A stretch of 64,000 bases of DNA from Candidatus Latescibacterota bacterium. GTDB lineage: Bacteria; Latescibacterota; UBA2968; UBA8231. Where the stretch lies: assembly GCA_965242865.1 (NCBI GenBank), contig CBDETK010000013.1, positions 1,120,001 to 1,184,000 on the forward strand, read 5' to 3'. Each line of letters starts with the position of its first letter. Positions within the stretch are counted from its first letter, which is position 1. Positions 4,566 through 19,908 of this stretch are shown piece after piece. The position numbers and the translations under genes were made by a program. The notes beneath the pieces were generated by a model, which saw only the letters and a list, made by a program, of their open reading frames with translations, was not told the origin of the DNA and made no database searches.

Positions 4566-4920
4566 GCCGATTCTCCTTTGGAACAAAAAAGGGAGGGCTT
4601 TCGCTCCAGACGATGCGCCCTTTTCGCAGCCAATAGTGGCAGCGGCAGGGCAAGCCGGTTACGTGGACTGAGGGTGACAGTGAAATCTGTCCGTCCACAT
4701 GTTCCGTTATGCTCCACCGTTTGTCAACTTGAGGCGACACATCCAAGTGAACAACTTGTCGGCATGTCCTGCGAGGGCAGACAATAGCTGCATAAAACGG
4801 GTGTTTGCGTCCGCCAATGATGTACACCGTATTTTTGTGGAGATCGTCCGGCAAATCCTCTACCCACTCCGTGCGGTAAGGACGGAAACGCGCCCATATA
4901 TTGAAAATCCACCTAAACAT
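4558..4920 (-). CDS. DUF6527-like putative zinc-binding protein
   Basis: VEDLPD...CPxxxC...SLSPSV...CRCHYWLRKGRIVW pattern; coupled to the E1 gene. Confidence 0.8.
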   Translation of the reverse strand: MFRWIFNIWARFRPYRTEWVEDLPDDLHKNTVYIIGGRKHPFYAAIVCPRRTCRQVVHLDVSPQVDKRWSITEHVDGQISLSPSVHVTGLPCRCHYWLRKGRIVWSESPPFFVPKENRHD

Positions 4921-6307
4921 GGCTAGTGTTATTTTTCACGAGTAAGCTCCTGTCGCCTGTTCCCATGTATCGTACCATCAATGGATGTGGCCCTCCCTCG
5001 TCCGCGGCGTTTTCATAGCATCCATGCACTAGGCGAAATCGTTGAGTCGCAAATTCGGCATTGGCGTCAAAGCGATAGGCATGAATGCGGGCCATGAAAT
5101 CGTTAAACGCCATACACGCCGCCTGCATGTTGACAGACATAACCGCCGGTTGTTCCTCGCCGACAGCGGCTAAATAGCCGGCCACGCGCTGTTGTTGGTA
5201 GTACGCCGGGTCCTTTCGCTGCCAATTTTCGGCCGTCACCTGTTCCATAGTGTACGCGCCGCGCGATAGCAGGCTTTCACCTTCTGGGTGAATGTAATGC
5301 GATACGGCATCGGCGGCGGTGATACCACCTTTCCCGTCGGCCTCAAGGTGGACTCCTACGTCAAAATAGGGAATCAGATAAGCACTTGCTAGGCAATCGA
5401 GATGATACCGGCCAAAGGCGGAATCCACGCAGCCGAAGATCACATCGCAATCGACTAAAGCGGCGACGACATCCGGTGAATCCGTCAATCCTTGGTGAGC
5501 ATCTACTTTGGTTCCCAGGCCGATCTTCTGAATAGCTCGTTCAATCGCCAGCACCTTTGGCTGCTGTGTGCGGGCGTCATCTATAGTACTGTTGATGAGG
5601 CGGTTCAGGTTTTTCTCTTCTACTATATCATCGTCCACAATGACCAACTCGCTCACGCAATTACGCATGAGTAGTTCAATGATTACGCTTCCTGTGCCAG
5701 AACAGCCCACAACCCCCACTCGCATAGTGTGCAATAAATCCAACGTGCCCTTGCCGAAGGTTTGCGCTAGCTTTTCTTGGTACGCCGTTTGGCTTCGGGA
5801 TTTGTGGGCCTTCCAGATGTGGATATTATCGCCGACTGCGGAGACCGTTGGCATATCGGCGAACGTTCCATGTGCGTCCACCGTGCGGGCCGCGATCTGG
5901 CCATTCGACAACATAATGGCGGAGCCATTTGGCCGCCCGTCGTCAAACCAATTGCATACAGAAGAAAACAATTCCCGGTCGTTGCGGTCGTCAATTTTTG
6001 AAAACCGGCCACATCCTTTGGGATGGGAATGAATAGTGACTACAGACTGTCCATTCCGATCTATATCGCAGATTTTTTCTGGCGGCAGGCAGTCGCCAAA
6101 AGGCCAAGCGACAAAATCCTCTTTTCTGACCGACAGATGATGTGGCGGATACAAAACATCCGCAACGATGAGGCGGCGATGTCTCTTCCCTGTCCCTTGG
6201 TTGCACAACAAAATGGCGGCGGCCTCCAGCCCGTCTCCGGGGAAAAGGTGGTTTTTAACCGCCTCATATTGACTCGCGGTCATGGTCAGGATAGCGGTTG
6301 TCATCAC
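4913..6307 (-). CDS. JAB peptidase-ThiF/E1 fusion
   Basis: N-terminal EAAA...HSHP...FSKIDD JAB motif; C-terminal VGVVGCSGTGS, DDDIVEEKNLNR, FGCVDS ThiF motifs. Confidence 0.88.
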   Translation of the reverse strand: MMTTAILTMTASQYEAVKNHLFPGDGLEAAAILLCNQGTGKRHRRLIVADVLYPPHHLSVRKEDFVAWPFGDCLPPEKICDIDRNGQSVVTIHSHPKGCGRFSKIDDRNDRELFSSVCNWFDDGRPNGSAIMLSNGQIAARTVDAHGTFADMPTVSAVGDNIHIWKAHKSRSQTAYQEKLAQTFGKGTLDLLHTMRVGVVGCSGTGSVIIELLMRNCVSELVIVDDDIVEEKNLNRLINSTIDDARTQQPKVLAIERAIQKIGLGTKVDAHQGLTDSPDVVAALVDCDVIFGCVDSAFGRYHLDCLASAYLIPYFDVGVHLEADGKGGITAADAVSHYIHPEGESLLSRGAYTMEQVTAENWQRKDPAYYQQQRVAGYLAAVGEEQPAVMSVNMQAACMAFNDFMARIHAYRFDANAEFATQRFRLVHGCYENAADEGGPHPLMVRYMGTGDRSLLVKNNTSHV

Positions 6308-6690
6308 CCGACTTCGGCTTTTAGCTGATTTTCTACATACTCAATATGACTGACGATGGAATCGACCCCCGGCTGCCATGAGTAATGACGCGACCAACGC
6401 TGCCAAGTCTGACCAAAATGAATCTCAGAGGCCAGAGCACCTATTGCTGAACTATCTGATTTATCAAGCGGAGGATAAAAGTAAAACATGTCCAACATCG
6501 ATCCGGGATAGCCGCTTGGAATGAGCACCATTAGCGTGGATTTTTCTACCGCATAGCCTTTGGGAATGGGAAAGTCGTCAATGAGTAGGCCATACTTACC
6601 ATTACCCTCGGCGACCTTCTTCCATTTGGACGGATAACTCGCATCCAGATATTCGTTATCCTCCGGCGGCAACTCGTAGGGATTAACCAT
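6304..6690 (-). CDS. Prokaryotic E2/UBC-like protein (family E-like), cysteine-free
   Basis: IPKGY...LIPSGYP...LDMFYFYP...WQRWSRH...W.PGVD; start at ATG 6690 overlapping the Ubl stop. Confidence 0.82.
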   Translation of the reverse strand: MVNPYELPPEDNEYLDASYPSKWKKVAEGNGKYGLLIDDFPIPKGYAVEKSTLMVLIPSGYPGSMLDMFYFYPPLDKSDSSAIGALASEIHFGQTWQRWSRHYSWQPGVDSIVSHIEYVENQLKAEVG

Positions 6691-7408
6691 GGCCTTGCTG
6701 TGCCTGTCGCCGAACGGTCTCAAAGCGTTCAATGCCGGGACGGGATAAATCGACCGCATCGTTGGCCTTGATTCTTTCTCTTTTACCGCCGTGCAGCTTC
6801 TGGTTGAGCGACCATTCGTCATCGCGCTTGTCGGCCAGTACCAAAATACCGGCCCCGGTGATTTCTGCAGAATCCACGGTGTACTTGTCGCCGTCTATGC
6901 GGATGCGGTATTGGTGCCCTTTGGGTGGGCGGCGGTCGTTCTTGCCGCACTCCTCAAGGTCAATGGCGTCGTCCGAGGTGGGCGGGATGACGAAAAACGA
7001 GTCCGCATCTTGGACGACAATCGTCATGTCATCCGCAATTTCCACATCCACACCGCCTTCAATGTCGGCAAATAGACGCCCCTGCGGGAACTTGTCGTCC
7101 CGCTCTTTGAGGGCTTTGCCGGTAGTTTTTGCTTGTGGAAGGGCGAGGTTGCGCGATCCATTGAATTCTGGCCGCACTTCATTGCGCAACGGCGGGTTAT
7201 CCCCGATCGAGCTTTTCCCCACTACAAACCGTTCTCCACCGCGAATAATGAGATGCTCCCCTGCCAAGAGAGGAATATCTATGCCATCTTCGCGGCTCAG
7301 AAAAATTCGTCCCTCGCCGCAATCGGCGATTTCATAGAGCGCGTCAATGGAAACAAGCCCCGCACGGATTGGGGTTTCCTGCCCGTCAATTTGGATTGTT
7401 GGTTTCAC
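6683..7408 (-). CDS. Multi-ubiquitin domain protein (about three beta-grasp repeats)
   Basis: Repeated I.IDG...ITG..I...VDL..PGIERF units; C-terminus QAQQG-HG; GTG start with GGAGG RBS. Confidence 0.85.
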   Translation of the reverse strand: MKPTIQIDGQETPIRAGLVSIDALYEIADCGEGRIFLSREDGIDIPLLAGEHLIIRGGERFVVGKSSIGDNPPLRNEVRPEFNGSRNLALPQAKTTGKALKERDDKFPQGRLFADIEGGVDVEIADDMTIVVQDADSFFVIPPTSDDAIDLEECGKNDRRPPKGHQYRIRIDGDKYTVDSAEITGAGILVLADKRDDEWSLNQKLHGGKRERIKANDAVDLSRPGIERFETVRRQAQQGHG

Positions 7409-7438: not shown

Positions 7439-7463
7439 GTCTCTTGTCTAGTGTACAAGAGAC
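7439..7463. promoter_or_regulatory. Perfect inverted repeat, candidate operator between the divergent Ubl operon and the higA-like gene
   Basis: GTCTCTTGT-N7-ACAAGAGAC. Confidence 0.55.
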
Positions 7464-7561
7464 GCCCGCAAGCGCAAGAGGCCATTTGCGATCCAAGTGG
7501 AACGGCAGCGGCGCGAGGAGAGACGCTCGCAGACCCAACTCGCTATAGCAAGGAGTACCCC

Positions 7562-7951
7562 ATGGCTGAAGTACTCGATTTTACCAAACCTCATTTGCTG
7601 AGAAACGAAGAAGAATACGATATCGCTGTCGCCGAGATCGATGCCCTTCTCGACGCCGAGCCGCAGCCTGGGTCGGAAGAATATGAGCGGCTGGAGTTTT
7701 TATCGGTTCTAGTGGAGGCTTACGAAGACGCGCATCTTCCGGCCTACGCAGAGGCCACGCCCCAAGAAGTGGTCGATTTTATGCTGGAGCAGAAGGGTTT
7801 TTCTCGGGACGATCTGGCGCAGTGGCTGGGCAGTAGAATCCGAACAGCGGAATTTTTCAATGGCATCCGTCCGCTCTCTATCCGGCAGATTAGCACATTG
7901 AGAGCACATCTAGGCATTCCAGCGGACTTACTGGTGGACCTTTCCTCATAG
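7562..7951 (+). CDS. HigA-like antitoxin / HTH regulator (orphan)
   Basis: RNEEEYD.A...LE.L..LVEAYE...FMLEQKG...DLA..LGS.....E..NG.R.LS...LGIPADLL; AAGGAG RBS before ATG 7562. Confidence 0.82.
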   Translation: MAEVLDFTKPHLLRNEEEYDIAVAEIDALLDAEPQPGSEEYERLEFLSVLVEAYEDAHLPAYAEATPQEVVDFMLEQKGFSRDDLAQWLGSRIRTAEFFNGIRPLSIRQISTLRAHLGIPADLLVDLSS

Positions 7952-8035
7952 TTATTCCACGGCATCGGAGCACACAAGCGTCCCTCAACAATCTAAAGCA
8001 CCTCTGACCAGTCTCATTGAAACAAGCGGAGCTAG

Positions 8036-8269
8036 ATGATGACCGAAACGAATCCAACTCAAGAACGGCCTTACCCCTTAGACCACGAGGGACGTATTGC
8101 TCGCCTAGAGGGAGTGGTCGAACAAATCGGCGTCCGGTTAGGGCGGCTGGAAACGAAGATTGACGCGGTGGAGGCCAAAATCGACGGGCTGTACCGTTGG
8201 GTAGTGCCGTTGCAGATTACGACGATCTTGGCTATCGCAGGGCTTGCGTTTAAGGCATTCGGCGGCTAG
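8036..8269 (+). CDS. Small coiled-coil protein with C-terminal TM helix
   Basis: Heptad RIARLEG...RLETKIDAVEAKID followed by a hydrophobic tail; GGAG RBS. Confidence 0.7.
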   Translation: MMTETNPTQERPYPLDHEGRIARLEGVVEQIGVRLGRLETKIDAVEAKIDGLYRWVVPLQITTILAIAGLAFKAFGG

Positions 8270-8287
8270 TACGTTCTTTCAAGCGGG

Positions 8288-8410
8288 GAGCAGAGCATCG
8301 AGTACGGCGCGGGCCTGTGTGCCGTAGCGGGTGAATAGGTCCCGCTTCTTCACGTTCTCAGCCCGCTCGCGCCGAGTGAGCGGGGCTGGCCATAGACCAC
8401 GTAGCAGATC
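8288..8410 (-). pseudogene. Degenerate ~123-bp copy of the hsdR 3' region
   Basis: Aligns by eye with 20083-20206, with scattered substitutions and a 1-nt deletion. Confidence 0.85.
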
Positions 8411-8414
8411 CCAA

Positions 8415-8448
8415 ATATTGTAGAAATTGTCAAAGTATCCTACAATAT
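8415..8448. promoter_or_regulatory. Inverted repeat upstream of the sigma-factor gene, candidate operator
   Basis: ATATTGTAG-N16-CTACAATAT perfect arms enclosing TTGTCA. Confidence 0.45.
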
Positions 8449-8541
8449 ATGGTATTCATCCTCTATAAACTTCGCGGAAGAATCGAGCCATAGAGGGCCG
8501 GAGAGCGCATTAACGACCATGGAGCAAGATTGTGAAGACAA

Positions 8542-8585
8542 CTTTCCGGTTTCCCTTCTGCAATGCGATTATTAGAGAGTAGAAG
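8542..8585 (+). promoter_or_regulatory. Putative alternative-sigma promoter, copy 1
   Basis: CTTTCCG-N17-CGATTA-TTAGAGAGTAGAA; same motif and spacing at 13551. Confidence 0.7.
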
Positions 8586-8632
8586 GGGCCTTATGTGCTC
8601 GGAATCCGCCGTTATTTAAGGAAAGGAAGGTA

Positions 8633-9376
8633 ATGGCTTGCCCATTGACTAAACGAAAAGCGACTGGGGACCTATATATCCGTCCTCTTCAAGTAGAGAG
8701 ACAGATTGATGAGGTCCTTTCCCAAGACCCATCGACGCTCCGACGACGCCTCATTGTTGCAGACCCCCAAGCGTCCGACTATCTAAGTTCGGAGTGCCTT
8801 GTCCATCTCGCTCGCTACTACCATAGGCACGGCGACGACTCTAAGACTAATGCGGTACTCTCCGTCTTACTAGGTCGCTGTGAAAAAACCCTATCGGCCA
8901 AAATCCCAGACAATGAACTCCCGACTGCGAGGGAGGTACGAGAGGAAGTGATTGGACAGTTCGGCGAGTTATTTGCTACCGATGGTACGCAAGAGAACCG
9001 CGACGACCTTGACTATTTTGAGTGTCGCTTCAATGGGGCGTTTCGCACTTTTTACATCGATATCGTAAGAAGTGAAACAGCCCCTCTAAAGCGATTAGCC
9101 CCCCTGCCAGACCAAGCCGACGACACCCACAAGGAATTGCAGAGTCCAGAAACAGCAGATAGTGCTTTATTCTGCAAAGAACTCCACGAAGCGATTGATG
9201 CTTTGCCGGATGACATGCGCAAGGCTGTCATCCTTTGCCATATCGAGGGATACAAAATCGAATCTCAGAACCCCAACGAGGCGACAGCAGCGACGATCTG
9301 CAAAGTATCAGGCCGAACCATTCGTAACCGTCTTTTGAGGGCAGCAGGGAAACTTTCTAAATTTAAGGATCAATAA
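8633..9376 (+). CDS. Sigma-70/ECF-like RNA polymerase sigma factor
   Basis: C-terminal region-4-like ELHEAIDALPDDMRKAVILCHIEG...CKVSGRTIRNRLLRA; AAGGAAGG RBS. Confidence 0.72.
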   Translation: MACPLTKRKATGDLYIRPLQVERQIDEVLSQDPSTLRRRLIVADPQASDYLSSECLVHLARYYHRHGDDSKTNAVLSVLLGRCEKTLSAKIPDNELPTAREVREEVIGQFGELFATDGTQENRDDLDYFECRFNGAFRTFYIDIVRSETAPLKRLAPLPDQADDTHKELQSPETADSALFCKELHEAIDALPDDMRKAVILCHIEGYKIESQNPNEATAATICKVSGRTIRNRLLRAAGKLSKFKDQ

Positions 9377-9387
9377 TTCGGATATTT

Positions 9388-9412
9388 TAAGTCTTTGTTT
9401 ATCAATGACTTA
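9388..9412. promoter_or_regulatory. Palindromic IHF-like site
   Basis: TAAGTCTTTG-TTTAT-CAATGACTTA contains WATCAANNNNTTR; a similar palindrome lies at 55583. Confidence 0.5.
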
Positions 9413-9436
9413 ACGTTAAAATACTAAGGAGGAGAC

Positions 9437-10108
9437 ATGTCCGTGACCCCAACCCTCAATGAGTTACCACTACGCGAGGTGTTGTATGAGTTTTCGCTAG
9501 CGAAGACCGTACCTGATGCAGACCTGCTCGACGATTTCGTTCAGCGGTTTCCGCAGTATGCTGACCGCCTCACGGAATTCGCCATCGAACTCGCTATAGA
9601 TGCTCTCCGGCCCGAGCCCGAGATCGACGCGAAGGCGACGGTTGATCTGAACCGTGTGAGTCCCGTTGTCTCGCGGGCAATGAGCCGATACCTGAATCGG
9701 CTACACGCCGTGCGCCAAACAACCGAGCCGACTGTCGACCGCGCTTCGACACCAGAAGTTGCAGATGCTCCAAATCCCTTCGCTAAACTAAACCGATCAG
9801 CGTTTCGGGAGTTAGCAGAGCGGCTCGGCGCGAACACTGTGTTCGTTGCCAAGCTGCGAGACCGCCAAGTCAAGCCGGATACCATCCCAAGCAGTTTTTT
9901 GCGGTACCTTGCAGATGCGCTTGGGACTTCACTTGACTTATTAACTGCCCACTTTGCTGTACCAAGCGCGGAACTTGGGAGCCGACAGTTTTACAAGGCC
10001 GATGACAAGCCTGATGGCAGTCAACGCCAGAGCTTCGTCGAGGCTGTTAAGAGTTCGGCTCTCAACGAGAACCAGCAGCACCAACTTCTTTCTAAGTTTC
10101 TAAACTGA
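9437..10108 (+). CDS. Hypothetical protein with XRE-like HTH (candidate anti-sigma / peptidase substrate)
   Basis: FRELAERLGANTVFVAKLRDR...LRYLADALGTS HTH-like segment; AAGGAGG RBS; stop overlaps the next start. Confidence 0.65.
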   Translation: MSVTPTLNELPLREVLYEFSLAKTVPDADLLDDFVQRFPQYADRLTEFAIELAIDALRPEPEIDAKATVDLNRVSPVVSRAMSRYLNRLHAVRQTTEPTVDRASTPEVADAPNPFAKLNRSAFRELAERLGANTVFVAKLRDRQVKPDTIPSSFLRYLADALGTSLDLLTAHFAVPSAELGSRQFYKADDKPDGSQRQSFVEAVKSSALNENQQHQLLSKFLN

Positions 10109-13100
10109 TGGACGCATTCGAGCCGATCCGTAAGTCCGCGGCGTGTCTGCACAAGGCTATCGCGGCGCGGACGGACCCTCTAGATACTACGGCACTTATT
10201 ACGGTCGCTGTGGCTCATCTAGATCTTGAACTCGTCTGTCTTGAGCCGGGTGATCCTGCTCTAAAAAATGCCCAGGCGGTGTTCGACGAACAGAGCGGTA
10301 CGATCTGCTGTGAAAAGATAGGGGATGGCACTGACCTTGCCTTGCTTGTGGCTCACGAACTTGGACATGCAGTTGTCCATGCTGGTTCGGCAGTTTGCAA
10401 GACGGATGACATTGATCCAGCTCGTTCGACTGAGACGGTCCCCGTTGGCTTGCAACGTGTCGAGGATTATGGGGCGCGGGAAAGGCGCGAATTACAGGCC
10501 AATGTTTTCGCTCGGGAGCTTCTCTTGCCCCAGAGTCTTGCACGTCGGCTCCATATTGAGGAGACCATGACCGCCTCGGCTATCGCCTCGCGCATGGGCT
10601 TGCCAAAGGCACTCGTCCGACAGCAGATATTTGACGCTCTTCTACTTCCGACGGAAGAGGAAGTAACTCCGGCGGAGACTTCGACCGATACACCGCGTTC
10701 GGATCCCTCGCAGGACCGGGCAGCCGCACATCGTGGTGCCCCGTTCCTGCTTCAGGCCGGGCCGGGAACCGGAAAAACACGGACGCTGGTAAAGCGCGTA
10801 AAATCGCTTCTAGCGGAGGACATTGATCCTTCCTCCCTACTCATCCTGACCTTCTCAAATCGGGCCGCTGGCGAGTTGTTGGAACGGCTTATGGCCATAG
10901 TCCCCGAGGCCGCTGAGCGTATTTGGATCGGAACGTTCCATGCTTTCGGACTTGATCTGATACGACGTCACTATGACCGTCTTGGCCTGTCCCCTAATCC
11001 AGTCCTGTTTGACCGCAGTGATGCGATTGATATGCTGGAGGAGCTCCTCCCAACGCTGCCTCTCGTCCACTACCGCAACTTATGGGATCCGACGATAGTG
11101 CTGCGAGAAGTGCTCCCTGCCATCTCTCGTGCTAAAGATGAGCTCGTAGATCGAAGCCGCTACCGAGAGCTCGCCGAAGCTATGCGAGCGGACGCAGACG
11201 ACAATGACGCTCGCGTGGCAGCCGAGAAGTGCTTGGAGATCGCCGACATTTATGATCTCTACGAAAGTGCCATGAGCGAACGGGATGCTGTTGATTTTGG
11301 CGATCTCATCATGCGGCCGGTATTGCTCTTAGAATCCGATCCAGCACTCAAGCACACTGTTCAGTTGCGGCACCGACACCTTCTAGTTGATGAATATCAG
11401 GACGTAAATCGGGCGAGCGCATGTTTGCTAAAAGCGATTGCTGGTGATGGCAAGCGTCTATGGGTGGTCGGCGACTCGCGTCAATCCATCTACCGCTTTC
11501 GCGGAGCGTCCCCTATCAACATGGCTCGCTTTGGCGACGACTACCCGGGGGCAGTAGTTGACCAACTCTCCGTCAATTACAGATCGACAGACCAGATCGT
11601 CGCCAGTTTCGTCAAGGTAGCTCCCCGGATGGGTGCATCCAAAGGCATGTTGCCACTTGCTCTTGACGCTGACCGAGGTTTGGGACCCGGAAAACCAGAA
11701 ATTCGGTGCTATGACACTCCCGACGACGAAGCTGGAGGTATCGCCGGAAGCATCCAAGAACTCAAAAGGGCGGGGGTTTCTCTCCGCGATCAGGCTGTGC
11801 TTTGTCGCTCGAACCGCCATCTGAATGAAATCGCCACAGCACTTGAAGCACACGGCATTCCTGCACTGCATCTCGGCAGTTTATTTGAGCGTGAGGAAAT
11901 ACGCGATTTGCTAGCACTTCTCAGCCTCGCAGTTGATCGGTTGGGTAATGGTCTCGTGCGGGTGGGAGTAATGCCGCGCTATGATCTCTCGTTGCAAGGC
12001 ATATATACCGCCTTGCACCACCTGCGGGATAGCAAGCAATCGGCCCTTTCGGGTATAGGGACGCTTGCTAAGGCTCAAGGTCTCTCGCCTGACGATTCAT
12101 CGGCATTTGCCCGCCTTGCACAGGATCTATCGGGACTCTCCCCAAGCATTTCCGCATGGGAATTTCTCTCAACGTATTTGCTTGACCACACTAATCTCGT
12201 GTGCGAGATGGCTCAAGCCACTACAGTCACCGACCGCATTCGGAACGTTGCTATTTGGCAATTTCTTAACTTCGCCCGCGAACGGCTCAAGACAGACAAG
12301 GGGTTGCTGATTCAGCGGATGCTGGATCGTATTCGGCAACTCGTACTGCTCGCCGAAGAACGGGATTTGCGCCAAATGCCTGCCGCTGCCCTCCATCTAG
12401 ACGCAGTGCGGCTGATGACCGTTCATGGTAGTAAGGGGCTAGAATTTGAAGCAGTCCATGTCCCTAGACTGACGACTGGAAATTTCCCTTCGTCGTACCG
12501 TGGCGTAAGATGCCCACCACCTATCGGTATGACTGAAGGCGCAGAGAGCTCTTCGGTCTCAAAAGAGGCCAAACAGAAACACAATCACGAGGAAGAGTGC
12601 TTGTTTTTTGTTGCCCTCTCGCGAGCACGAACCCATTTACGCCTTTACTTGGCGCATCGGAACTCTAACGGCAGGAACTGCTCGCCATCGCCTTTCTTGA
12701 ATTGGCTGCCAACGGGGACAATCGACAAAGTTGCCCATCCGGTGATCCTGCCACCGCCAGCCAACATGCACAGCCCAGGGTCTATCCAAGTGAGGCGACC
12801 CACCGAATGGCACGTCACGGACAGTACGCTTATCTCCTACGAGAAATGTCCCCGTCGCTTCTTCTATACCCATGTGTTGGGGCTCGGTGGTGCCCGTAAA
12901 GCGACCGCCTATTCGCAGACTCAGGACTGTCTCTACAAACTCATTCGGTGGGTGGGCGAGCGTCGGCTAACAGCCGAACCTACACTTAGCGAGACTGAAG
13001 ACGCTTTCGATACGATCTGGCATGCACACGGGCCAATCTCCCACAAGTTCGCTGACGAATACCGCCGCCTCGCCTTGCGGTTAATAGGTGTCTTAGTTAA

Positions 13101-13536
13101 TGCCAACACTGGACAGCATTTCCGTGAAGTCAAACCGTTGGTGATTGATTTCTTAAATGGTCGCGTGTCCATAGAGCCAGATGCGATCATCAACTTACCG
13201 GACGGAAAAGTCGCTTTGTGCAAAATCCGCACCGGCGATAAGCGCAACAACGAATATAATCGCCTTGACTACGCACTCTATCAGTTGGCCAGTCAGCAAC
13301 ACTTCGGTAACCATTCAGTGACTCAGGTTCTGTACCTTACAAACACAAACGGGATGTTCAAAGATGTGCAGATCTCGCCGAAAACGCTCAACAATCGGCG
13401 GTGTACGATTGATGGGATGCTCGGTGAGATTGCTAAGGGGAAGTTCCCACCCAAGATCAATGAAATGACATGCCCGCGATGTCCGCACTTTTTCATCTGT
13501 GATGCTATGCCTCGTGGATCTCTGACGCTCCCATAA
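10108..13536 (+). CDS. ImmA/IrrE metallopeptidase-UvrD helicase-PD-(D/E)XK-like fusion
   Basis: AHELGH and ELQANVFARELLLP; AGPGTGKT, VDEYQD, GDSRQSIYRFRGA, NYRS, TVHGSKGLEF, VALSRAR; YEKCPRRF...CPRCPHFFIC. Confidence 0.9.
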   Translation: MDAFEPIRKSAACLHKAIAARTDPLDTTALITVAVAHLDLELVCLEPGDPALKNAQAVFDEQSGTICCEKIGDGTDLALLVAHELGHAVVHAGSAVCKTDDIDPARSTETVPVGLQRVEDYGARERRELQANVFARELLLPQSLARRLHIEETMTASAIASRMGLPKALVRQQIFDALLLPTEEEVTPAETSTDTPRSDPSQDRAAAHRGAPFLLQAGPGTGKTRTLVKRVKSLLAEDIDPSSLLILTFSNRAAGELLERLMAIVPEAAERIWIGTFHAFGLDLIRRHYDRLGLSPNPVLFDRSDAIDMLEELLPTLPLVHYRNLWDPTIVLREVLPAISRAKDELVDRSRYRELAEAMRADADDNDARVAAEKCLEIADIYDLYESAMSERDAVDFGDLIMRPVLLLESDPALKHTVQLRHRHLLVDEYQDVNRASACLLKAIAGDGKRLWVVGDSRQSIYRFRGASPINMARFGDDYPGAVVDQLSVNYRSTDQIVASFVKVAPRMGASKGMLPLALDADRGLGPGKPEIRCYDTPDDEAGGIAGSIQELKRAGVSLRDQAVLCRSNRHLNEIATALEAHGIPALHLGSLFEREEIRDLLALLSLAVDRLGNGLVRVGVMPRYDLSLQGIYTALHHLRDSKQSALSGIGTLAKAQGLSPDDSSAFARLAQDLSGLSPSISAWEFLSTYLLDHTNLVCEMAQATTVTDRIRNVAIWQFLNFARERLKTDKGLLIQRMLDRIRQLVLLAEERDLRQMPAAALHLDAVRLMTVHGSKGLEFEAVHVPRLTTGNFPSSYRGVRCPPPIGMTEGAESSSVSKEAKQKHNHEEECLFFVALSRARTHLRLYLAHRNSNGRNCSPSPFLNWLPTGTIDKVAHPVILPPPANMHSPGSIQVRRPTEWHVTDSTLISYEKCPRRFFYTHVLGLGGARKATAYSQTQDCLYKLIRWVGERRLTAEPTLSETEDAFDTIWHAHGPISHKFADEYRRLALRLIGVLVNANTGQHFREVKPLVIDFLNGRVSIEPDAIINLPDGKVALCKIRTGDKRNNEYNRLDYALYQLASQQHFGNHSVTQVLYLTNTNGMFKDVQISPKTLNNRRCTIDGMLGEIAKGKFPPKINEMTCPRCPHFFICDAMPRGSLTLP

Positions 13537-13550
13537 ATTTTTTGCGACGG

Positions 13551-13591
13551 CTTTCCGTTTTCTTCCGTTCTATCCGATTAATAGAGTAGAA
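13551..13591 (+). promoter_or_regulatory. Putative alternative-sigma promoter, copy 2
   Basis: CTTTCCG-N17-CGATTA-ATAGAGTAGAA upstream of the Ubl gene. Confidence 0.7.
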
Positions 13592-13648
13592 AGCAGAGAC
13601 AGGCAATGGAGCCTATATCTAGCTCTAAGGTCAAGGAGGCCTTATATA

Positions 13649-14155
13649 ATGGATCGTATCGATGTGTTTTACCAATGTGAGGGGATCAGCGAGATCGGGC
13701 AGATCGATGTTGACGCTGACGCTACCTTCGCGACGGTCAAATCCGAGCTCGCCGACAAGCACGGCCTCGCCGAGGAAGTGATCATCTCTCTAGAGGATGA
13801 TGACGAACGAATCGACGAAAACAGGCAAGTGAAGGAATTCGCCGACCTGACCGTCATTATGGTCCACCTGAATCGCTGCCGTTGCATCGAAGCCAGTGTG
13901 AACTATAACGGTCGTACTGTCGATCACAGCTTCGGACCGAGCGCGACTATCGCCCGTGTCAAAAAATGGGCGGCTGAGGAGTATGGAATGAGTCCCGAAG
14001 ATGCCGGTGAACATTCCCTGCAAATCGTCGACACTCAAAACAGGCCAGCACCGGGGACTCATATTGGTAGGCTGGTTTGCTGCCCTGATTGCAACTTGGC
14101 CTTCGACCTCGTTGCCGACGAGCGCGTGAACGGGTCGACCGGGAGCACAGCTTGA
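13649..14155 (+). CDS. bilA: Ubiquitin-like protein of a Bil/ISG15-like defence system (two beta-grasp domains)
   Basis: V.YNG....[12 protein letters not shown]...LV..ERVNG followed by a short tail STGSTA; first gene of a Ubl-E2-JAB-E1 operon. Confidence 0.8.
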
Positions 14156-14619
14156 GCCCCCCTGACCAACGGGCATTCGAGGCGGACGTGGCAAAGGCCA
14201 CGTTCCGCCTTGGAGAACGACAAGGGCGTTGGTGCTTGATCTGCATAGATTGGCCCTTCGTCTTGATCTCTGTGACTGCAAAAGACAGACGCGAATATGT
14301 GCTACGCTTCAACTGTGCAGGTTATCCGCAAGACCCGCCCACGGGCGGCCTGTGGGATCGCACCCGGAATGCGATCTTGGAACCCAATTGCTGGCCACAG
14401 GGCCAAGGGGGTCGCGTTTCGGCAGTTTTCCGCTCCGACTGGAAGAGTGGATCTGCTTTGTACTTACCTTGCGACCGTGAAAGCATTGCTGGACACGATG
14501 GCTGGCGAACCGAGATGCCGTCAAAAATCTGGCGTCCGGCTGACGGGATCATCCAATACTTGGAAATCGTTTATGAACTTCTCCATAGCCCAGATTATAC
14601 GCCGCTGCCTTGCACCTAA
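14152..14619 (+). CDS. bilB: E2-like conjugating enzyme of the Bil system
   Basis: [17 protein letters not shown]...WP...ALYLPCDR (candidate catalytic Cys); TTG start overlaps the Ubl stop. Confidence 0.78.
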
Positions 14620-15091
14620 GCATGAACTGTCCTGTTCTTGGTTTCTCTGGCGTCGCTTGCTCACCGGCTTACGGGAGCGCGGTCACAGCGAGTCGCGGGA
14701 AAGCGGTGCTTTTCTACTAGGTTACCATAACGGCCAACGTGCCCGCATCGTTGATTTTGTCTTGTATGATGATCTCGATCCGCACTGCCTTGATACCGGC
14801 ATCGTCCGATTCGACGGGCGATATTTCGGAAAACTTTGGGATATTTGCAAAAACCGTGATCTGATTGTCGTGGCCGATGTTCATGTCCATCCGAGGGGAT
14901 CACAGCAAAGTGAGTCGGATCGCACCCATCCTATGATTTCGTGTAAAGGGCACTTGGCACTAATCCTGCCGCGTTTTGCAGCCAATCCGCTCCCAAGGCG
15001 CGAAATTGGTATCTACCGATACCAAGGGGCCAAGCAGTGGCAGAATATTGCGTCCACTGACCGGAGGGCTTTTTTCCATATCGGCCTATAG
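14573..15091 (+). CDS. bilC: JAB-family deubiquitinase of the Bil system
   Basis: ESGAFLLG...DVHVHP...QSESD JAB motif. Confidence 0.82.
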
Positions 15092-15101
15092 GGAATTATC
15101 T

Positions 15102-16466
15102 ATGAACGCTAAACCGAATGCCGACAGCCTGCACCGCTTGGTTAAGTACGCGCTCGATAGCGGAGAGGCCAAGACTCTCGCCGAGGCGGAGAAGCTATTT
15201 CGTGGCTATCGCCTTGCGCTTACCATTCACGGGGCCGAATCTCGAAGTTCACTCAATCAAGTCGCGTTGTTGACGGCGGTTGCTCTTGGCCGCCGTGTAT
15301 TCCTCGGCGGAGTTTCCGTAGAAGGCGACTTAGATGTACCGCTGAAAGTACCGCTACCGCTCCGCTCTAGGCTTCACGAGGCTGTGGGCGATCTCGGTGG
15401 ATCGGTTACGCCTTCTGACGACGAAACGCCGACCATTGCTATTGGTGGCGGCCCTCGCCCACGACAGCCTGGGTTTCACATCCGTACGGCAATCGCCGGA
15501 TGGCGCGGTGGCATCCTTCCGGCGCACTCAGAATTGGTGCCGACCCCTGGACCTACGATTCCGTTAGCGGCTATGCTGTCCGCTGGCCTCGCGGTCAATG
15601 AAGCCTTCCAGTTTGTGGACAGCGGCGGTCCTGCGGTGGGACGACGACCAATAGGATTGTCGCTGTGGCGGCCCGATGCAGACTGGCTGGCATCCGACTT
15701 AGACGGGCCTCAGATTGCCTATCTTCCATCGCGGCTTTGGCTGATCGGGCTCGGGCACCTAGGACAAGCGTATCTTTGGGGGCTTGGGTTACTGCCCTAT
15801 AAGGATCCGGGGAAGCTCTCTCTCGTCCTGCAAGATATAGATAAGATCACGCCATCGACCGAAAGCACATCGATCTTGAGCGGCGCGGGCACGGTGGGCC
15901 AAAAAAAGACCCGTGCTATGGCAGCTTGGGCAGAAAAACGTGGGTTTGCGACAGCGTTGCACGAGCGACTGTTCGATGCCAGTTTCCGCCGCCAAGATAG
16001 AGAACCAACCGTCGCGTTGTGTGGTTTGGATAATGCGCCAGGACGGCAAGCACTTGATCAAGTGGGCTTTGAGTTGATTGTCGAGGCTGGGCTTGGGAGA
16101 GGGCAACAAGACTTCCGTACCATGCGCCTGCACGTACTACCGGGGGCACGTTCGGCGAAGGAGCTTTGGAAACTGGCAGCACCTGCTGAAACAGCTACGG
16201 ATCGCCCCGCCTATCAAGAGATGCTCAAAAGTGGCGAATTGGATCGTTGCGGCGTTACGCTTCTAGCCGGTAAGGCGGTCGGTGCTCCCTTTGTAGGCAC
16301 CGTGGCTGCTACGCTGGTACTGTCTCAAGTGCTACGCTTACTCCACGGCGAGAGCCCCTATCAGCTAATCGATCTTAATCTGCTCTCTGTTGACCATTGC
16401 TCTACCGTTCCTAGTTCCAAGTGCTTTCAGTCTCTCAACCCCGGATACACTGCCGAACTCTATTGA
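15102..16466 (+). CDS. bilD: E1-like activating enzyme of the Bil system
   Basis: Inactive-like N-terminal half plus LIGLGHLGQ, LQD.D, CGLDN, EAGLG, LDRCG, GAPFVG. Confidence 0.8.
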   Translation: MNAKPNADSLHRLVKYALDSGEAKTLAEAEKLFRGYRLALTIHGAESRSSLNQVALLTAVALGRRVFLGGVSVEGDLDVPLKVPLPLRSRLHEAVGDLGGSVTPSDDETPTIAIGGGPRPRQPGFHIRTAIAGWRGGILPAHSELVPTPGPTIPLAAMLSAGLAVNEAFQFVDSGGPAVGRRPIGLSLWRPDADWLASDLDGPQIAYLPSRLWLIGLGHLGQAYLWGLGLLPYKDPGKLSLVLQDIDKITPSTESTSILSGAGTVGQKKTRAMAAWAEKRGFATALHERLFDASFRRQDREPTVALCGLDNAPGRQALDQVGFELIVEAGLGRGQQDFRTMRLHVLPGARSAKELWKLAAPAETATDRPAYQEMLKSGELDRCGVTLLAGKAVGAPFVGTVAATLVLSQVLRLLHGESPYQLIDLNLLSVDHCSTVPSSKCFQSLNPGYTAELY

Positions 16467-16573
16467 GGATTAAAAGATAAGATGCCGAACCTTAATTACA
16501 CCGCGAATAGCTTCCCTTCGAGTTGGGGCCGCTACTCCATGGCTCGCGTTCCATTGAGTAGTAAGACCGTTCT

Positions 16574-18241
16574 TCAAACGACGTTGGTTGCGGCTACAGC
16601 GGAGGCGTCGTGATGTTTCCTTTTATCGACGAGGTGTTGCTCCAATTGGTCAATCAGCCCCATCAGTTCATCGACTTTGGCGACGATGCGGTGCTGTTCG
16701 GCAGTCGGCGGGAGTGGCACAGGCGCACGAAGGAGGTCGGTATCATTGATGGCGGGATACGCGACCCCTTTCATTTGGGCCGTGACGAAATCGACAAAAA
16801 ATGGAGCGCGGAGATAGAAGAACAAGAGACGGCTATGCACCCCAGAGTGCGGATGTAAAACGGCGAATGCCGTGGAGGCAATCGGCGTTGGAGAGTATTC
16901 GCAATCAACTACGGCGATGTTGAGTAGATATGGACGAACAGTAGAGTAGATGACCGATTCAAGACGAACCAACTTTCGGGCACGGGAAGGAGCCTCGCTG
17001 GGGTCGAGAATAGGAACTGCGCTGATGATTGCACCGCGTTTGTTGTCAATCGCGCTTACGTCAATGTACGAGAACGTTTTATCAGGCACCTTCTGGCCGA
17101 GATCGTGCGCCAGATCGTGGAGCCGCACCCAAGTCCAAGACCGGGGAATCTCAAAAGGAATCTCGGCGGACATAAGAGGGCCATAGGACTTGCGCTTTCG
17201 CACCTTCTTCTTTTTAACCAGTTCCGCCTTCTCAGCAACGATCAATTCGAGCAATCGGCCCGCTGGTTCGTCCCCCGAATCCTGCTCCACCAACCGCCCC
17301 CGTACCGCAAGCTGAAGCACGGCCTCGCGCAACGGCACCAGATCGGCCGGATCCGTGAACAAGTCGTCCATCCGCTCGGCAATGCACATCCATGCAGCCG
17401 AGACCTCTTTGGGGGTAGCAGCATTCCGAAGCGTGGCGAGTGCTGAGTCTCGGCCGGCGATGCGGGCGGCCTCGCGGCTACTCCGCGCAGCCTCCAGCCG
17501 GTCAATTAAACCCATCAATTCATCGACTTTGGCGACGATGCGGTGTTGTTCTGCTTCAGGCGGCAACGGAAATAGTGCTTGGCGAGCCTTGTCCGTTCCC
17601 AGTCGCGGCAGGTTCATGCCGTGTGTTGAGGAGTTGGCATACTGCACAAAGTACGGTGACTTCAATACAAGTCGAATGAATTGTGGAGTGAGACCGACGA
17701 ATCCTCTTATTGGCATTATCTCAGAAGTACATACACCATCTTCATTGGCGATAATTACCTTGTCGAGATACGGACGTAGCTTTCCGTATAAGACATCGCC
17801 TTTGTAGAAGCGATTTTTGGCACTCTTGAAGGGTCTCATTCCATAGCGCACCCGGTTAAGAAGCCGAGAAGACACCTTCTCTATATCTTCAAGTTCAAGT
17901 ACCCAGGTCTCTTTACTGACTTCGCTAGGCTCGGCTTTCTTGGTCGTCCCGTAACTAGTGATCTCCCCCAAGTGCGTCCATTCCCAACTGACGGGGATTC
18001 CAAAAGGAAACTCGGCGTCTTTTATCGTCGGTAGCGGTTTCCTCGTTCTGATCTGATGACTTCGACGCGCTTTTTCATCCGCAATGCGTTCCAGAAGCAC
18101 CGAGGCCGATTCGTCCCCCGCATCCTGCGGCACCAGCCTCCCCCGCACCGCAAGCTGAAGCACCAACGCCCGCAGCCGCTCAACCCCTCCCGGCGCCTCG
18201 GCGATCACATCAAACGCGGCGATGAACTCCCCCGGCGTCAT
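16574..18241 (-). CDS. hsdS: Type I R-M specificity subunit
   Basis: Duplicated LQLAVRGRLV.QD, PF.IP.SW.W and PLPP.AEQHRIVAKVDELM conserved regions around two TRDs. Confidence 0.93.
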   Translation of the reverse strand: MTPGEFIAAFDVIAEAPGGVERLRALVLQLAVRGRLVPQDAGDESASVLLERIADEKARRSHQIRTRKPLPTIKDAEFPFGIPVSWEWTHLGEITSYGTTKKAEPSEVSKETWVLELEDIEKVSSRLLNRVRYGMRPFKSAKNRFYKGDVLYGKLRPYLDKVIIANEDGVCTSEIMPIRGFVGLTPQFIRLVLKSPYFVQYANSSTHGMNLPRLGTDKARQALFPLPPEAEQHRIVAKVDELMGLIDRLEAARSSREAARIAGRDSALATLRNAATPKEVSAAWMCIAERMDDLFTDPADLVPLREAVLQLAVRGRLVEQDSGDEPAGRLLELIVAEKAELVKKKKVRKRKSYGPLMSAEIPFEIPRSWTWVRLHDLAHDLGQKVPDKTFSYIDVSAIDNKRGAIISAVPILDPSEAPSRARKLVRLESVIYSTVRPYLLNIAVVDCEYSPTPIASTAFAVLHPHSGVHSRLLFFYLRAPFFVDFVTAQMKGVAYPAINDTDLLRAPVPLPPTAEQHRIVAKVDELMGLIDQLEQHLVDKRKHHDASAVAATNVV

Positions 18242-19746
18242 GCCGTCCGCTCCAATGCCTCGGCCAACGCCCGCTTTAGCTGCGCCCGCACGTTTGCCGC
18301 GGCAGCCCGTTCCTTCTCGTACAAGGCCAGCAATTCATTTGGGTCGCCGTGACCAGCCTCCGCCGCATTGGGGTTGGCGATGTCGAGGTTGAAGCCGCGC
18401 TCCCTGATTGCGTCGATGCCGACCTTCCAAGCGAACTCGTTTTCAGCCCGATAGTTCCACCACGCCTTCTCCGGTGCAAACTCCTCAATCCGCATCGGCT
18501 TGGTCTTGGAATAGGACTTGTAGCCCTCCGGGTAGGGATGCTCGTAGTACCACACCTCAGTAGTCGGCCTGCCCTTCTCAAAGAACAGCACATTGGTCTT
18601 GATCCCGGTGTACGGCGCGAACACCCCGTTGGGCAAGCGCACGATGGTGTGCAACTCGCACTCGGCGAGCAGTCGCTCTTTCAGGCGCGTTTTCACCCCC
18701 TCGCCAAACAAGGTGCCGTCCGGCAGCACCACCGCAGCCCGGCCCCCGGGCTTGAGCAACTCGACGATCAGCACCAAAAACAAGTCCGCGGTCTCCCGCG
18801 TGCGGAACTCGGCCGGGAAGTTGCGCTCAATGCCGTCCTCCTCCATGCCGCCAAACGGCGGATTGGTGAGCACCACATCGACCCGGTCGCCCATGCCGAT
18901 GTCGCGCAGGGGCCGGGCGAGGGTGTTGTCGTGCCGAATGCCCGTCGGCACGTCGAGGCCGTGGACGATCATGTTGGTGACACACAGCAGATGCGGCAGC
19001 GGCTTCTTCTCGACCCCTTGCATGCTCGCCTGAAGCTGCGCCTCTTGCGCTGGCGTCTTCACGTCCTGCCGCCGAATGTGCTCAATGGCGCACGTCAAAA
19101 AGCCGCCGGTGCCGCAGGCCGGGTCGAGGACCGATTCCCCGAGGCGAGGATTGAGCATGTCAACCGCGAATTGCGTCACCGCTCGTGGCGTGTAGTATTC
19201 GCCAGCATTGCCGGCACTCTGGAGGTCTTTGAGCAGTTGCTCGTAGATGTTGCCGAACAAGTGCCGGTTGGTGGCGTCGTTGAAATCAATGTCGGCCTCG
19301 ATCTTGTTGACCACCTGCCGCAGCAGGATGCCGGACTTCATGTACTGGTAAGCGTCCTCAAAAACGCCGCGCACCAAGCGACAGCGGCTCATCCGCACAT
19401 CCTCTTCCGCACTCGGCGGCTCAACCTCCATGCCCTTGAGCGCGGGAAACAGCGTTTCGTTGACAAAGGCGAGCAGCCTATCGCCGGTGGCCCCTTCCCG
19501 ATCCGCAGCCCACGCGCTCCAGCGCAAGTCCGCAGCGGTGCGAGTCTCGCCTTCCTCCATCCAAGTTACGTCAACCAACGGAGACGCGAAGCCCTCTTCG
19601 AGCAGTTCCAATTCCTGCTCGCGGTCGTTCCATATCTTGAGGAACAGCAGCCAGACGAGCTGACCAATGCGCTGGGCATCGCCATCGACGCCCACGTCCT
19701 TGCGCATGATGTCTTGAATGGACTTGATGGTGGTAGATAGAGACAC
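18238..19746 (-). CDS. hsdM: Type I R-M N6-adenine methyltransferase
   Basis: GEYYTPR, DPACGTGGF, NPPFGG. Confidence 0.95.
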   Translation of the reverse strand: MSLSTTIKSIQDIMRKDVGVDGDAQRIGQLVWLLFLKIWNDREQELELLEEGFASPLVDVTWMEEGETRTAADLRWSAWAADREGATGDRLLAFVNETLFPALKGMEVEPPSAEEDVRMSRCRLVRGVFEDAYQYMKSGILLRQVVNKIEADIDFNDATNRHLFGNIYEQLLKDLQSAGNAGEYYTPRAVTQFAVDMLNPRLGESVLDPACGTGGFLTCAIEHIRRQDVKTPAQEAQLQASMQGVEKKPLPHLLCVTNMIVHGLDVPTGIRHDNTLARPLRDIGMGDRVDVVLTNPPFGGMEEDGIERNFPAEFRTRETADLFLVLIVELLKPGGRAAVVLPDGTLFGEGVKTRLKERLLAECELHTIVRLPNGVFAPYTGIKTNVLFFEKGRPTTEVWYYEHPYPEGYKSYSKTKPMRIEEFAPEKAWWNYRAENEFAWKVGIDAIRERGFNLDIANPNAAEAGHGDPNELLALYEKERAAAANVRAQLKRALAEALERTA

Positions 19747-19773
19747 GGCTTAGGATCATCCTTTCGCTATATA

Positions 19774-19892
19774 TATAGCAGTCCTAAATAACTTGAAGGC
19801 ATGAAATGTTGATCGGCACCGTCTTTTTCGCCTATGAAAAGTCATTCCCGCGAACGCGGGAATCCAGTCTTGAATGATGTAGGATTGCTATA
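19774..19892. mobile_element. TA-flanked MITE-like element with internal palindrome
   Basis: TATAGCAGTCCTA...TAGGATTGCTATA terminal inverted repeats in TA runs; contains GTCATTCCCGCGAACGCGGGAATCCAG. Confidence 0.65.
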
Positions 19893-19908
19893 TAAATGAA
19901 CTCAGGCA

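Follow-up and report, generated by a model that had tools for sequence, protein, structure and literature searches.

Probable cognate promoters of a divergent ECF-like sigma factor ahead of its own gene and of the adjacent BilABCD operon in a Latescibacterota genome

INTRODUCTION

It is an open question how bacteria silence immune operons that are costly or self-harming for as long as they are not needed, and a locus of Candidatus Latescibacterota bacterium raises it. In a 64,000-nucleotide stretch of its genome (assembly GCA_965242865.1, contig CBDETK010000013.1, positions 1,120,001–1,184,000; hereafter the window, numbered from its first letter), a gene for a divergent sigma-like protein and the operon of BilABCD (Bil, a type 6C ubiquitin-like anti-phage system) are each preceded by the same pair of short sequence boxes. 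The controllers reported for Bil and Bub operons in the available parts of the literature examined are all of the repressor type: CapW, CapH+CapP as well as CapK+CapS. What, then, are the two sites, and which protein reads them?

Sequence comparison across related loci indicates that the two sites, P1 and P2, are probably the cognate promoters of the extracytoplasmic function (ECF)-like sigma factor encoded at 8633–9376, a reading to which we assign a probability of roughly 0.75. From the alignments we infer the promoter elements to be a −35 box cTTTCCGG(g)TT and a −10 box CGAT(T/C)A separated by a 17-nt gap.

RESULTS

The same two boxes precede the sigma gene and bilA

The two sites are composed of the following elements.

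8541–8552, + strand: −35-like box of P1, aCTTTCCGGTTT, with the core CTTTCCG at 8542–8548; position weight matrix score 28.1 bits
8566–8571, + strand: −10-like box of P1, CGATTA, 17 nt 3′ of the −35 core
8572–8584, + strand: downstream tail of P1, TTAGAGAGTAGAA, the predicted start-site region, with a putative start near 8577–8580
13550–13561, + strand: −35-like box of P2, gCTTTCCGTTTT, with the core at 13551–13557; position weight matrix score 27.8 bits
13575–13580, + strand: −10-like box of P2, CGATTA, 17 nt 3′ of the −35 core
13581–13648, + strand: tail of P2 (ATAGAGTAGAA, 13581–13591) and bilA leader, with a putative start near 13586–13589

The genes of the locus are arranged around them in one direction.

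8633–9376, + strand: divergent ECF-like sigma, 247 aa; PF08281 at 27.7 bits and AlphaFold2 (AF2) fold
9437–10108, + strand: protein X, 223 aa, candidate anti-sigma; no Pfam, NCBIfam or PADLOC family
10108–13536, + strand: fusion of an M78 (IrrE/ImmA-type) peptidase with a UvrD-type helicase and a PD-(D/E)XK (Cas4-like) nuclease, 1142 aa; Pfam and NCBIfam domains
13649–14155, + strand: bilA, ubiquitin-like protein; PADLOC BilA, 1.2e-51
14152–14619, + strand: bilB, E2-like, DUF7665; PADLOC BilB, 4.9e-60, and DUF7665, 2.1e-67
14573–15091, + strand: bilC, JAB deubiquitinase; PADLOC BilC, 4.1e-66; in-frame ATG at 14573
15102–16466, + strand: bilD, E1; PADLOC BilD, 8.9e-170; ATG at 15102

An earlier note on this sequence had described CTTTCCG and CGATTA exactly 17 nt apart at 8542–8571 and 13551–13580, with a spacer that mostly differs, a shared tail, and a position some 60–70 nt ahead of a start codon. 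The letters bear out this description. The spacers of the two sites are identical at 8/17 positions, and the tails both follow the pattern (T/A)TAGAG(AG)TAGAA, differing by a 2-nt AG insertion. The end of the −10-like box lies 61 nt from the ATG of the sigma gene (8633) at P1 and 68 nt from that of bilA (13649) at P2, and good Shine–Dalgarno sequences stand ahead of both start codons. P2 begins 15 nt past the stop codon of the helicase gene; a terminator search found no terminator between that gene and P2, and a terminator-like hairpin at 16601–16620 after bilD.

A search for sigma-70-type promoters across 7900–16700 returned three, compared with 5.7 expected, and none of these is near P1 or P2, which supports the description of the sites in the earlier note as non-canonical promoters. 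An Rfam scan of 8200–14300 returned nothing relevant; its sole match (E 0.8) was to a snoRNA model within the helicase gene. A search for sequencing runs that contain the locus listed five, none of them recorded as RNA.

The exact motif CTTTCCG-N17-CGATTA matches twice on the forward strand and never on the reverse strand of the 5,997,474-base genome, and a control in which the sequence was read backwards gave no match. When up to two mismatches are allowed, the window holds four matches (1.48 expected), of which only P1 and P2 are exact. The earlier note had proposed a genome-wide scan for further copies, and we carried this out with a two-block weight matrix trained on 77 sites, all from other genomes. 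P1 (28.1 bits) and P2 (27.8 bits) rank first and second genome-wide, the best other match inside the window scores 11.6 bits, and the reversed-sequence control contains one match above 20 bits. The exact counts, the matrix ranks and these controls together exclude chance as the origin of P1 and P2.

The next matrix matches are at 24.7 bits (a repeated element in four copies) and 22.2 bits (a single site on contig C13). The 24.7-bit matches are identical to one another and lie on contigs C9 (5812 and 16222) and C12 (2651 and 13156), in a unit that recurs about every 10.4 kb. No open reading frame (ORF) lies downstream of these four copies on that strand, so they are probably unrelated to P1 and P2; as candidates for further regulon members in this genome, both they and the 22.2-bit site were set aside as probable chance or unrelated matches.

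The two sites are conserved in related loci

Homologues of the sigma-like protein number 84 and are about 260 aa long. The comparison covers 80 of the 155 relatives' loci found by an alignment-based scan, with one genome per species, and includes Latescibacterota, Acidobacteriota, Gemmatimonadota-like and Verrucomicrobiota-like metagenome-assembled genomes as well as Alpha-, Beta-, Gamma- and Deltaproteobacteria. The order sigma–X–helicase is conserved. The motif is visible by eye in the 130 nt upstream of 77 sigma genes, three truncated matches being omitted, and a regular-expression scan locates a second copy about 4.9–5.0 kb downstream, directly past the helicase gene.

The consensus at P1 is ctTTCCGGgTt-N13-gCGAT(t/c)Aa (45 distinct sites), and at P2 it is ccTTTCCGGgTT-N13-CGAT(c/t)Aa-N3-gGTAAaGGgAC (34 distinct sites). 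The −35 box ctTTCCGGgTt has the highest information content of the region. The gap at P2 is N17 in 34/34 distinct sites, and at P1 it is N17 in 35/45, N16 in 8 and N18 in 2. Many relatives carry a purine-rich rGTrA element 5–9 nt past the P1 −10 box. The motif is asymmetric and bipartite, and in every case it reads in the same direction as the following gene.

A degenerate form of the pattern occurs 30–250 nt ahead of the sigma gene in 41/44 testable Bil-type loci, and between the helicase gene and bilA in 35/40; the background amounts to 44 further matches on the + strand and 33 on the − strand in 812 kb. Absence of the motif from homologous loci, which the earlier note had named as grounds for abandoning its proposal, is thus not what is found. 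Autoregulation was addressed here at the level of sequence: the motif stands ahead of both the sigma gene and the cargo in the window and in the Bil-type loci just counted. Downstream of P2 we find Bil genes in 24/24 tested loci, where 43/48 submitted ORFs match a Bil model.

Within a locus, the −35 boxes of P1 and P2 are identical to the extent of 0.94 and the −10 boxes to 0.82, whereas the spacers reach only 0.44 and the two flanks 0.30 and 0.37. Because the boxes are so much more alike than the sequence between and around them, we regard the boxes as constrained and the spacer as free to vary. At 28/44 P1 sites the 32 nt preceding the −35 box contain a run of five or more A or five or more T, as against 66/2200 random windows.

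One of the plasmid-borne loci, L083 (our locus handle; Rhizobium leguminosarum Tp73_4 plasmid pRL11), has a RefSeq coding sequence for a 48-aa ‘hypothetical protein’ at 8341–8487 that covers P1 (8411–8439) and is probably an over-call; P2 of this locus is at 13402–13430. Most genes of this locus are annotated as hypothetical, and the fusion gene as ‘ATP-dependent helicase’. An atlas of transcription start sites reportedly exists for Cupriavidus metallidurans CH34. The genome paper of that strain, in the part available, mentions uvrD and thiF on pMOL28; no CH34 record is among the matches listed in plasmid searches with the sigma of the window or that of locus L048.

The protein encoded at 8633–9376 has the predicted fold of a two-domain sigma factor

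The sigma-like protein is composed of an N-terminal extension (residues 1–50), a sigma2-like domain (52–154), a disordered linker (155–174) and a sigma4 domain (175–247). Region 4 is the only part that passes a curated cut-off in sequence searches (Sigma70_r4_2, PF08281, 27.7 bits; cut-off 25.7). The AF2 model (predicted local distance difference test, pLDDT, 83) contains two helical domains. The best Foldseek match is Escherichia coli sigmaE (6jbq_F, E 8.1e-4), and the top 11 matches are all ECF sigmas, aligned over 170–206 columns. Structural alignment with VIA places 68 residues on sigmaE region 4 with Z 10.4 and a root-mean-square deviation of 2.9, including the structure bound to −35 DNA (2h27_A). 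Two-domain alignments are obtained with AlgU (6in7_B, Z 9.5, 156 residues spanning 51–247) and with sigmaE (6jbq_F, Z 9.0, 162 residues).

The model therefore has the architecture that defines ECF sigmas, sigma2 and sigma4 only, with an additional 50 residues at the N-terminus. Its predicted fold is that of a divergent ECF-like sigma with two domains. Every module has a sigma whose region 4 is intact. In public annotations the gene appears variously as ‘hypothetical protein’, ‘DNA-binding response regulator’, ‘sigma factor-like HTH protein’ and ‘sigma-70 family sigma factor’.

The motif also accompanies modules with Bub-type cargo

More distant modules encode a sigma that is 27–32% identical to that of the window, retain the X gene (197 aa) and the M78–UvrD–nuclease gene, and adjoin different ubiquitin-like cargo. 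In Burkholderiales, Pseudomonas and others the cargo consists of a Multi_ubiq+Prok-E2_E fusion, JAB-ThiF and DUF6527; in sphingomonads it consists of Multi_ubiq, DUF6791-ThiF and DUF6527. By the naming used in the accessible portions of the literature, these cargo operons are Bub-type. The signal in these loci is TT(T/A)CCGG-N16/17-CGATT(G/A) followed by GAGTAAGGGG, and in 26/29 testable loci it lies in the interval from the helicase stop codon to the start codon of the cargo. P1 is found in only 7/33. As the same motif stands ahead of Bub-type operons, it belongs to the regulator and, judged from these alignments, is a signal that travels with the regulator and not with Bil cargo.

A further copy lies 562–586 nt into the sigma ORF in 31/33 Bub-type and 12/44 Bil-type loci (for example at 10571 in L048, 10577 in L075 and about 10581 in L010), where it encodes ..AFR..AAIDALP... 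Its −35 variant, TTTCCGG or TTACCGG, is that of P2 in the same locus. This intragenic copy may act as an internal promoter of the X and helicase genes. The window lacks it: the corresponding segment (9167–9200) has a decayed −35 part.

Box variants change together within a locus. L042–L045 carry GGTTCCGG...GAATTA at both P1 and P2, and L075, L076, L077, L079, L081 and L082 carry TTACCGG at both the intragenic site and P2. The LDxxExxF(N/D) motif of the sigma (residues 126–134 in the window protein) is related to the last base of the −10 box at P2: RFN occurs with A in 36/38 loci and RFD with G in 24/24. L071 and L081 are exceptions to their own clade, yet they obey this rule. Matching the sigma4 recognition helix to the −35 variants did not give a clean relation and is suggestive only: L071 and L081 keep RNRRDR despite a TTACCGG −35 box.

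Additional co-oriented copies flank the Bil locus in L010 (8157 and 17979), L013 (8150 and 17973) and L012 (17979), where they precede a Peptidase_C14 (caspase-like) gene and a gene for an 895-aa PD-(D/E)XK protein. These copies suggest larger regulons in some Alphaproteobacteria. In L050, L053 and L057 the long helicase ORF is absent, and a P2-like site with a GAGTAAG(G/A)GGGCC tail lies 1.6–2.1 kb past the sigma start; these loci look like natural deletions of the sensor gene.

Protein X is a candidate anti-sigma and the fusion protein a candidate protease

The AF2 model of X (pLDDT 80.6) contains four N-terminal helices, a weak XRE-like helix-turn-helix (HTH) domain at residues 110–175, and a conserved C-terminal motif. 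X has no Foldseek match at E 0.001 or better. VIA aligns residues 110–175 with XRE HTH domains at Z 4.3–6.2, all below 8 and hence below the level at which this tool is informative; the weak matches include ImmR (7t8i_B, Z 4.8), CapH (7t5u_A, Z 4.8) and DdrO (6rnz_B, Z 4.7).

The predicted complex of the sigma with X scores 0.80, and the best of three controls scores 0.00. In calibration this mark was reached by 116/157 solved complexes and 2/215 mismatched pairs, counts that are only rough for the sigma–X pair because our own alignments were supplied. At least 69% of contacts agree between runs, with a partner pLDDT of 73 or more. The predicted interface joins sigma residues 9–146 with X residues 10–96. 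The model supports binding of the sigma by X, which we regard as a candidate anti-sigma.

In the 1142-aa protein encoded downstream of X, Peptidase_M78 is matched at 24.8 bits (cut-off 22) over residues 81–173, and the HExxH motif (H83, E84, H87) is invariant in 14/14 aligned homologues. Taken with its helicase and nuclease parts, the fusion is a candidate DNA-sensing protease.

The bilA leader contains a conserved block

The sequence GTAAGGGAC directly past the −10 box is kept in the bilA leaders of relatives, and the block is conserved in both Bil-type and Bub-type loci. An alignment of 13 leaders admits two possible hairpins, the second of which covers the GGAG ribosome-binding site. In this alignment 82.8% of cells are paired, compared with 25–51% in slid controls, and five pairs are changed on both sides. 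The second helix, with 75.8% of cells paired, was drawn from one sequence, and the slid control therefore favours it. RNAalifold alone returns only the first hairpin, of four pairs, and the window's own bilA leader fits the second helix poorly.

Surroundings of the locus

The bil genes stand in the order bilA-B-C-D, encoding the ubiquitin-like protein, E2, JAB and E1 components, and all four PADLOC models are matched; the cargo at 13649–16466 is thus BilABCD itself. The start of bilB is probably a TTG that overlaps the bilA stop codon. Directly upstream, on the minus strand, is another operon for ubiquitin-like conjugation (4913–7408), and the matrix scan of the window places no copy of the motif there. 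Its genes are as follows.

4913–6307, − strand: JAB-ThiF E1
6304–6822, − strand: Prok-E2_E
6683–7408, − strand: 241-aa ORF without a family

Directly past bilD, also on the minus strand, are the type I restriction-modification genes hsdS, hsdM and hsdR (16574–22245), and a PD-Lambda-2_B-like fragment occupies 7451–7951. The restriction-modification genes and this fragment place the locus in a defence island.

DISCUSSION

P1 and P2 as probable promoters

The two sites combine unlike boxes at the gap used by the sigma-70 family with a fixed orientation and A or T runs upstream, and no sigma-70-type promoter accompanies either. We take this geometry to indicate a promoter and not the site of a dimeric repressor. 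The proposal in the earlier note that the boxes are the −35 and −10 elements of an autoregulated alternative sigma is supported by the predicted fold of the protein, by conservation at both places, by the constraint on the boxes, by their co-variation and by the way the motif accompanies the module to other cargo operons. The same note had called the motif direct sequence evidence that the sigma module and the Bil operon form one regulon. A shared and conserved motif is indeed present, but ‘direct’ overstates support that comes from sequence and structure models.

Several observations weigh against this assignment. The general sigma70-ECF model TIGR02937 scores 22.1 bits where its cut-off is 42.9, and its match is confined to residues 153–243; the Pfam sequence search gave no region-2 family for the protein. 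The Foldseek E-values are only about 1e-3 and the TM-scores are low, the latter because the two sigma domains are oriented differently. ECF promoters usually have an AAC-containing −35 box and a CGT-type −10 box, and the boxes cTTTCCGGgTT and CGAT(T/C)A are unlike this consensus, only the CG of the −10 box recalling it. The −35 box also holds the short palindrome CCGG, which extends to TTCCGGAA in some loci, and the GTAAGGG block past the P2 −10 box is more strongly conserved than a promoter would require. A P1 match is missing in 3/44 Bil-type loci (L031, L034 and L039), and a P2 match in 5/40 (L029, L031, L032, L034 and L039). The relation between RF(N/D) and the last −10 base fails at P1, where D occurs with A in 6/6, and at the intragenic site; this co-variation of box and protein is confounded by phylogeny and is not clean, so that we regard it as suggestive only. 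The score of the sigma–X complex expresses model confidence and, since sigma/anti-sigma complexes have already been solved, may partly reflect likeness to known structures. The weak XRE-HTH-like domain means that X could bind DNA itself, which would give part of the motif an operator role.

The last point leads to the alternative that the motif is mainly an operator, through which a protein of the module, most likely X by way of its XRE-like HTH, would repress both transcription units; the real promoter would then be a different and weaker signal, and the sigma-like protein would be otherwise employed. The XRE HTH domains aligned with X residues 110–175 include those of ImmR, CapH and DdrO, which are cut by M78 peptidases, and the adjoining gene encodes an M78 domain with an invariant HExxH. 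The Bil and Bub controllers described in the accessible literature are repressors, and the CCGG palindrome of the −35 box points the same way. Dimeric XRE repressors bind inverted repeats, however, and the motif is asymmetric, with unlike boxes at a fixed 17-nt gap and in a fixed orientation. No sigma-70-type promoter was detected nearby for a repressor to block. The HTH alignments of X are all below Z 8 and no Foldseek match reaches E 0.001, the N-terminal half of X is predicted to bind the sigma, and every module keeps a sigma with an intact region 4. We consider an operator improbable on this balance. A form of dual control has a similarly small chance of being correct: the boxes would be the sigma promoter, and the GTAAGGGAC block or a structured bilA leader would provide a second site, either bound by X or acting as an RNA that gates translation. 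The conservation of the block past the −10 box at P2, in Bil- and Bub-type loci alike, and the two leader helices, with pairing well above the slid controls and the second helix over GGAG, are what would be expected of such a site. Against this, the second helix derives from a single sequence and is not recovered by RNAalifold, the leader of the window itself accommodates it poorly, and conservation so close to the start site may simply reflect start-site preference.

P1 and P2 are also direct repeats about 5 kb apart that bracket exactly the sigma–X–helicase cassette, and this cassette adjoins different cargo operons, as might be expected if the repeats arose from, or served, movement of the cassette as recombination or insertion sites. 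The pattern of conservation contradicts this: the boxes are alike and the spacer and flanks are not, and likeness confined to the boxes is not the outcome of duplication or site-specific recombination. P2 is kept in nearly all Bub-type loci, yet P1 is kept in only about a fifth of them; a further copy lies inside the sigma ORF, and extra copies precede other genes. We have rejected this explanation, which we regard as very unlikely.

A proposed protease-gated switch

If P1 and P2 are the cognate promoters of the sigma, P1 would drive the operon of sigma, X and the M78–UvrD–nuclease fusion, giving positive autoregulation, and P2 would drive bilABCD. A single small regulon, with a non-sigma-70 promoter of its own, would then unite the regulatory module and Bil. 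At rest, the N-terminal helices of X would hold the sigma2 domain. We propose that the helicase–nuclease part of the fusion engages DNA that is abnormal or foreign, for instance ends or single strands arising from phage replication or damage, and that this engagement would activate the M78 domain and lead to cleavage of X. The freed sigma would take RNA polymerase to P1 and P2. The DNA signal and the cleavage of X in this putative protease-gated sigma/anti-sigma switch are suggested by analogy, in the case of X with CapH/CapP, ImmR/ImmA, DdrO/IrrE and the regulated proteolysis of anti-sigmas.

Comparison with known systems

Among the closest published arrangements is that of Myxococcus xanthus, in which the ECF sigma DdvS is paired with the anti-sigma DdvA; in the part of the report available, four DdvS-dependent promoters drive a CBASS/CRISPR island (PMC11506125). 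Control of a defence island by an ECF sigma and anti-sigma is, with that report, already known as a kind. The module described here resembles it in having a dedicated ECF-type sigma and a candidate anti-sigma, with putative cognate promoters before a defence operon and before the sigma gene itself, and in both cases release of the sigma is proposed to need proteolysis. The two differ in that DdvA spans the membrane and carries a TPR-CHAT module on the periplasmic side, whereas the partner here is a soluble 223-aa protein, and in that the M78 domain proposed here as the protease is part of a fusion with a UvrD helicase and a PD-(D/E)XK nuclease. Bil or Bub takes the place of CBASS/CRISPR as cargo, the sigma is far more divergent, falling below the ECF model cut-off, and the boxes differ.

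CapH+CapP, and the related ImmR/ImmA and DdrO/IrrE, pair an XRE-HTH repressor with the M78 peptidase that cuts it. According to the portions of the literature accessible, CapH+CapP lies next to 25/162 Bil operons and 168/544 Bub operons, and capH and capP are read divergently from bilABCD (10.1101/2023.09.26.559546). Shared features are an M78 peptidase with an intact HExxH, an adjacent small protein, in our case with only weak likeness to XRE HTH domains, a position upstream of Bil or Bub, and a likely input of DNA damage or foreign DNA. CapH+CapP has no sigma and a stand-alone CapP, whereas the present module has three genes read in one direction, one of them for a sigma, joins its peptidase to a helicase–nuclease, and has an asymmetric −35/−10 pair as its DNA signal.

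CapW/BrxR and CapK+CapS are described, in the available part of the source, as ‘controllers of adjacent pathways’ that respond to DNA damage (PMC13373217). In common with the module here, these regulator cassettes are portable and stand immediately upstream of immune operons of various kinds, Bil and Bub among them. They are repressors (WYL-HTH, and STAS-wHTH with a kinase) and have no sequence or domain relation to it. In type III-E CRISPR systems, Craspase reportedly cleaves Csx30 and so releases an ECF-like sigma. By description only, this resembles the present proposal, in which a nucleic-acid-activated protease would free a sigma in anti-phage defence; Craspase is an RNA-guided Cas7-11 with a CHAT protease and lacks a helicase, an M78 domain and Bil cargo.

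The accessible text of the two Bil preprints (10.1101/2023.09.04.556158 and 10.1101/2023.09.26.559546) mentions no sigma factor, helicase fusion or promoter motif. In the available parts of the Bil, Bub and CapK/S papers ‘sigma’ refers to reagent or antibody suppliers, a map contour level or comparisons with anti-sigma-type kinases, and ‘helicase’ does not occur; section 7 of the CapK/S paper (PMC13373217) does not mention the module. Our literature search found no sigma factor with an M78–UvrD fusion beside Bil or Bub, although supplementary neighbour tables might list some of the fusions as CapP.

Implications

These comparisons allow a broader proposal, to which we give an even chance. The sigma/X/M78–UvrD–nuclease cassette and its promoter pair may constitute a fourth class of portable ‘controller of adjacent pathways’, with a mechanism distinct from the others: a sigma/anti-sigma switch in the cytoplasm that a DNA-sensing protease–helicase–nuclease opens and that is specialised for ubiquitin-like conjugation immunity. 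It would serve Bil and at least two types of Bub operon across the range over which the module is found, which takes in Latescibacterota, Acidobacteriota and Alpha-, Beta- and Gammaproteobacteria as well as plasmids; in most Bub-type modules, a third promoter inside the sigma gene would separately drive the anti-sigma and sensor genes.

If the promoter assignment is correct, ubiquitin-like anti-phage immunity would be placed under a positive, amplifying switch, with a precise DNA target of two boxes at a 17-nt gap and predicted starts at about 8577–8580 and 13586–13589, and with a route to the signal through a helicase–nuclease fused to a protease. The motif allows members of the regulon to be found from sequence, as illustrated in relatives by the caspase-like peptidase gene and the 895-aa nuclease gene. 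A compact, orthogonal set of sigma, anti-sigma and promoter could also serve as a part for synthetic biology. For the bacteria that carry it, the module would offer one answer to how a costly or self-harming immune operon is held silent until it is needed.

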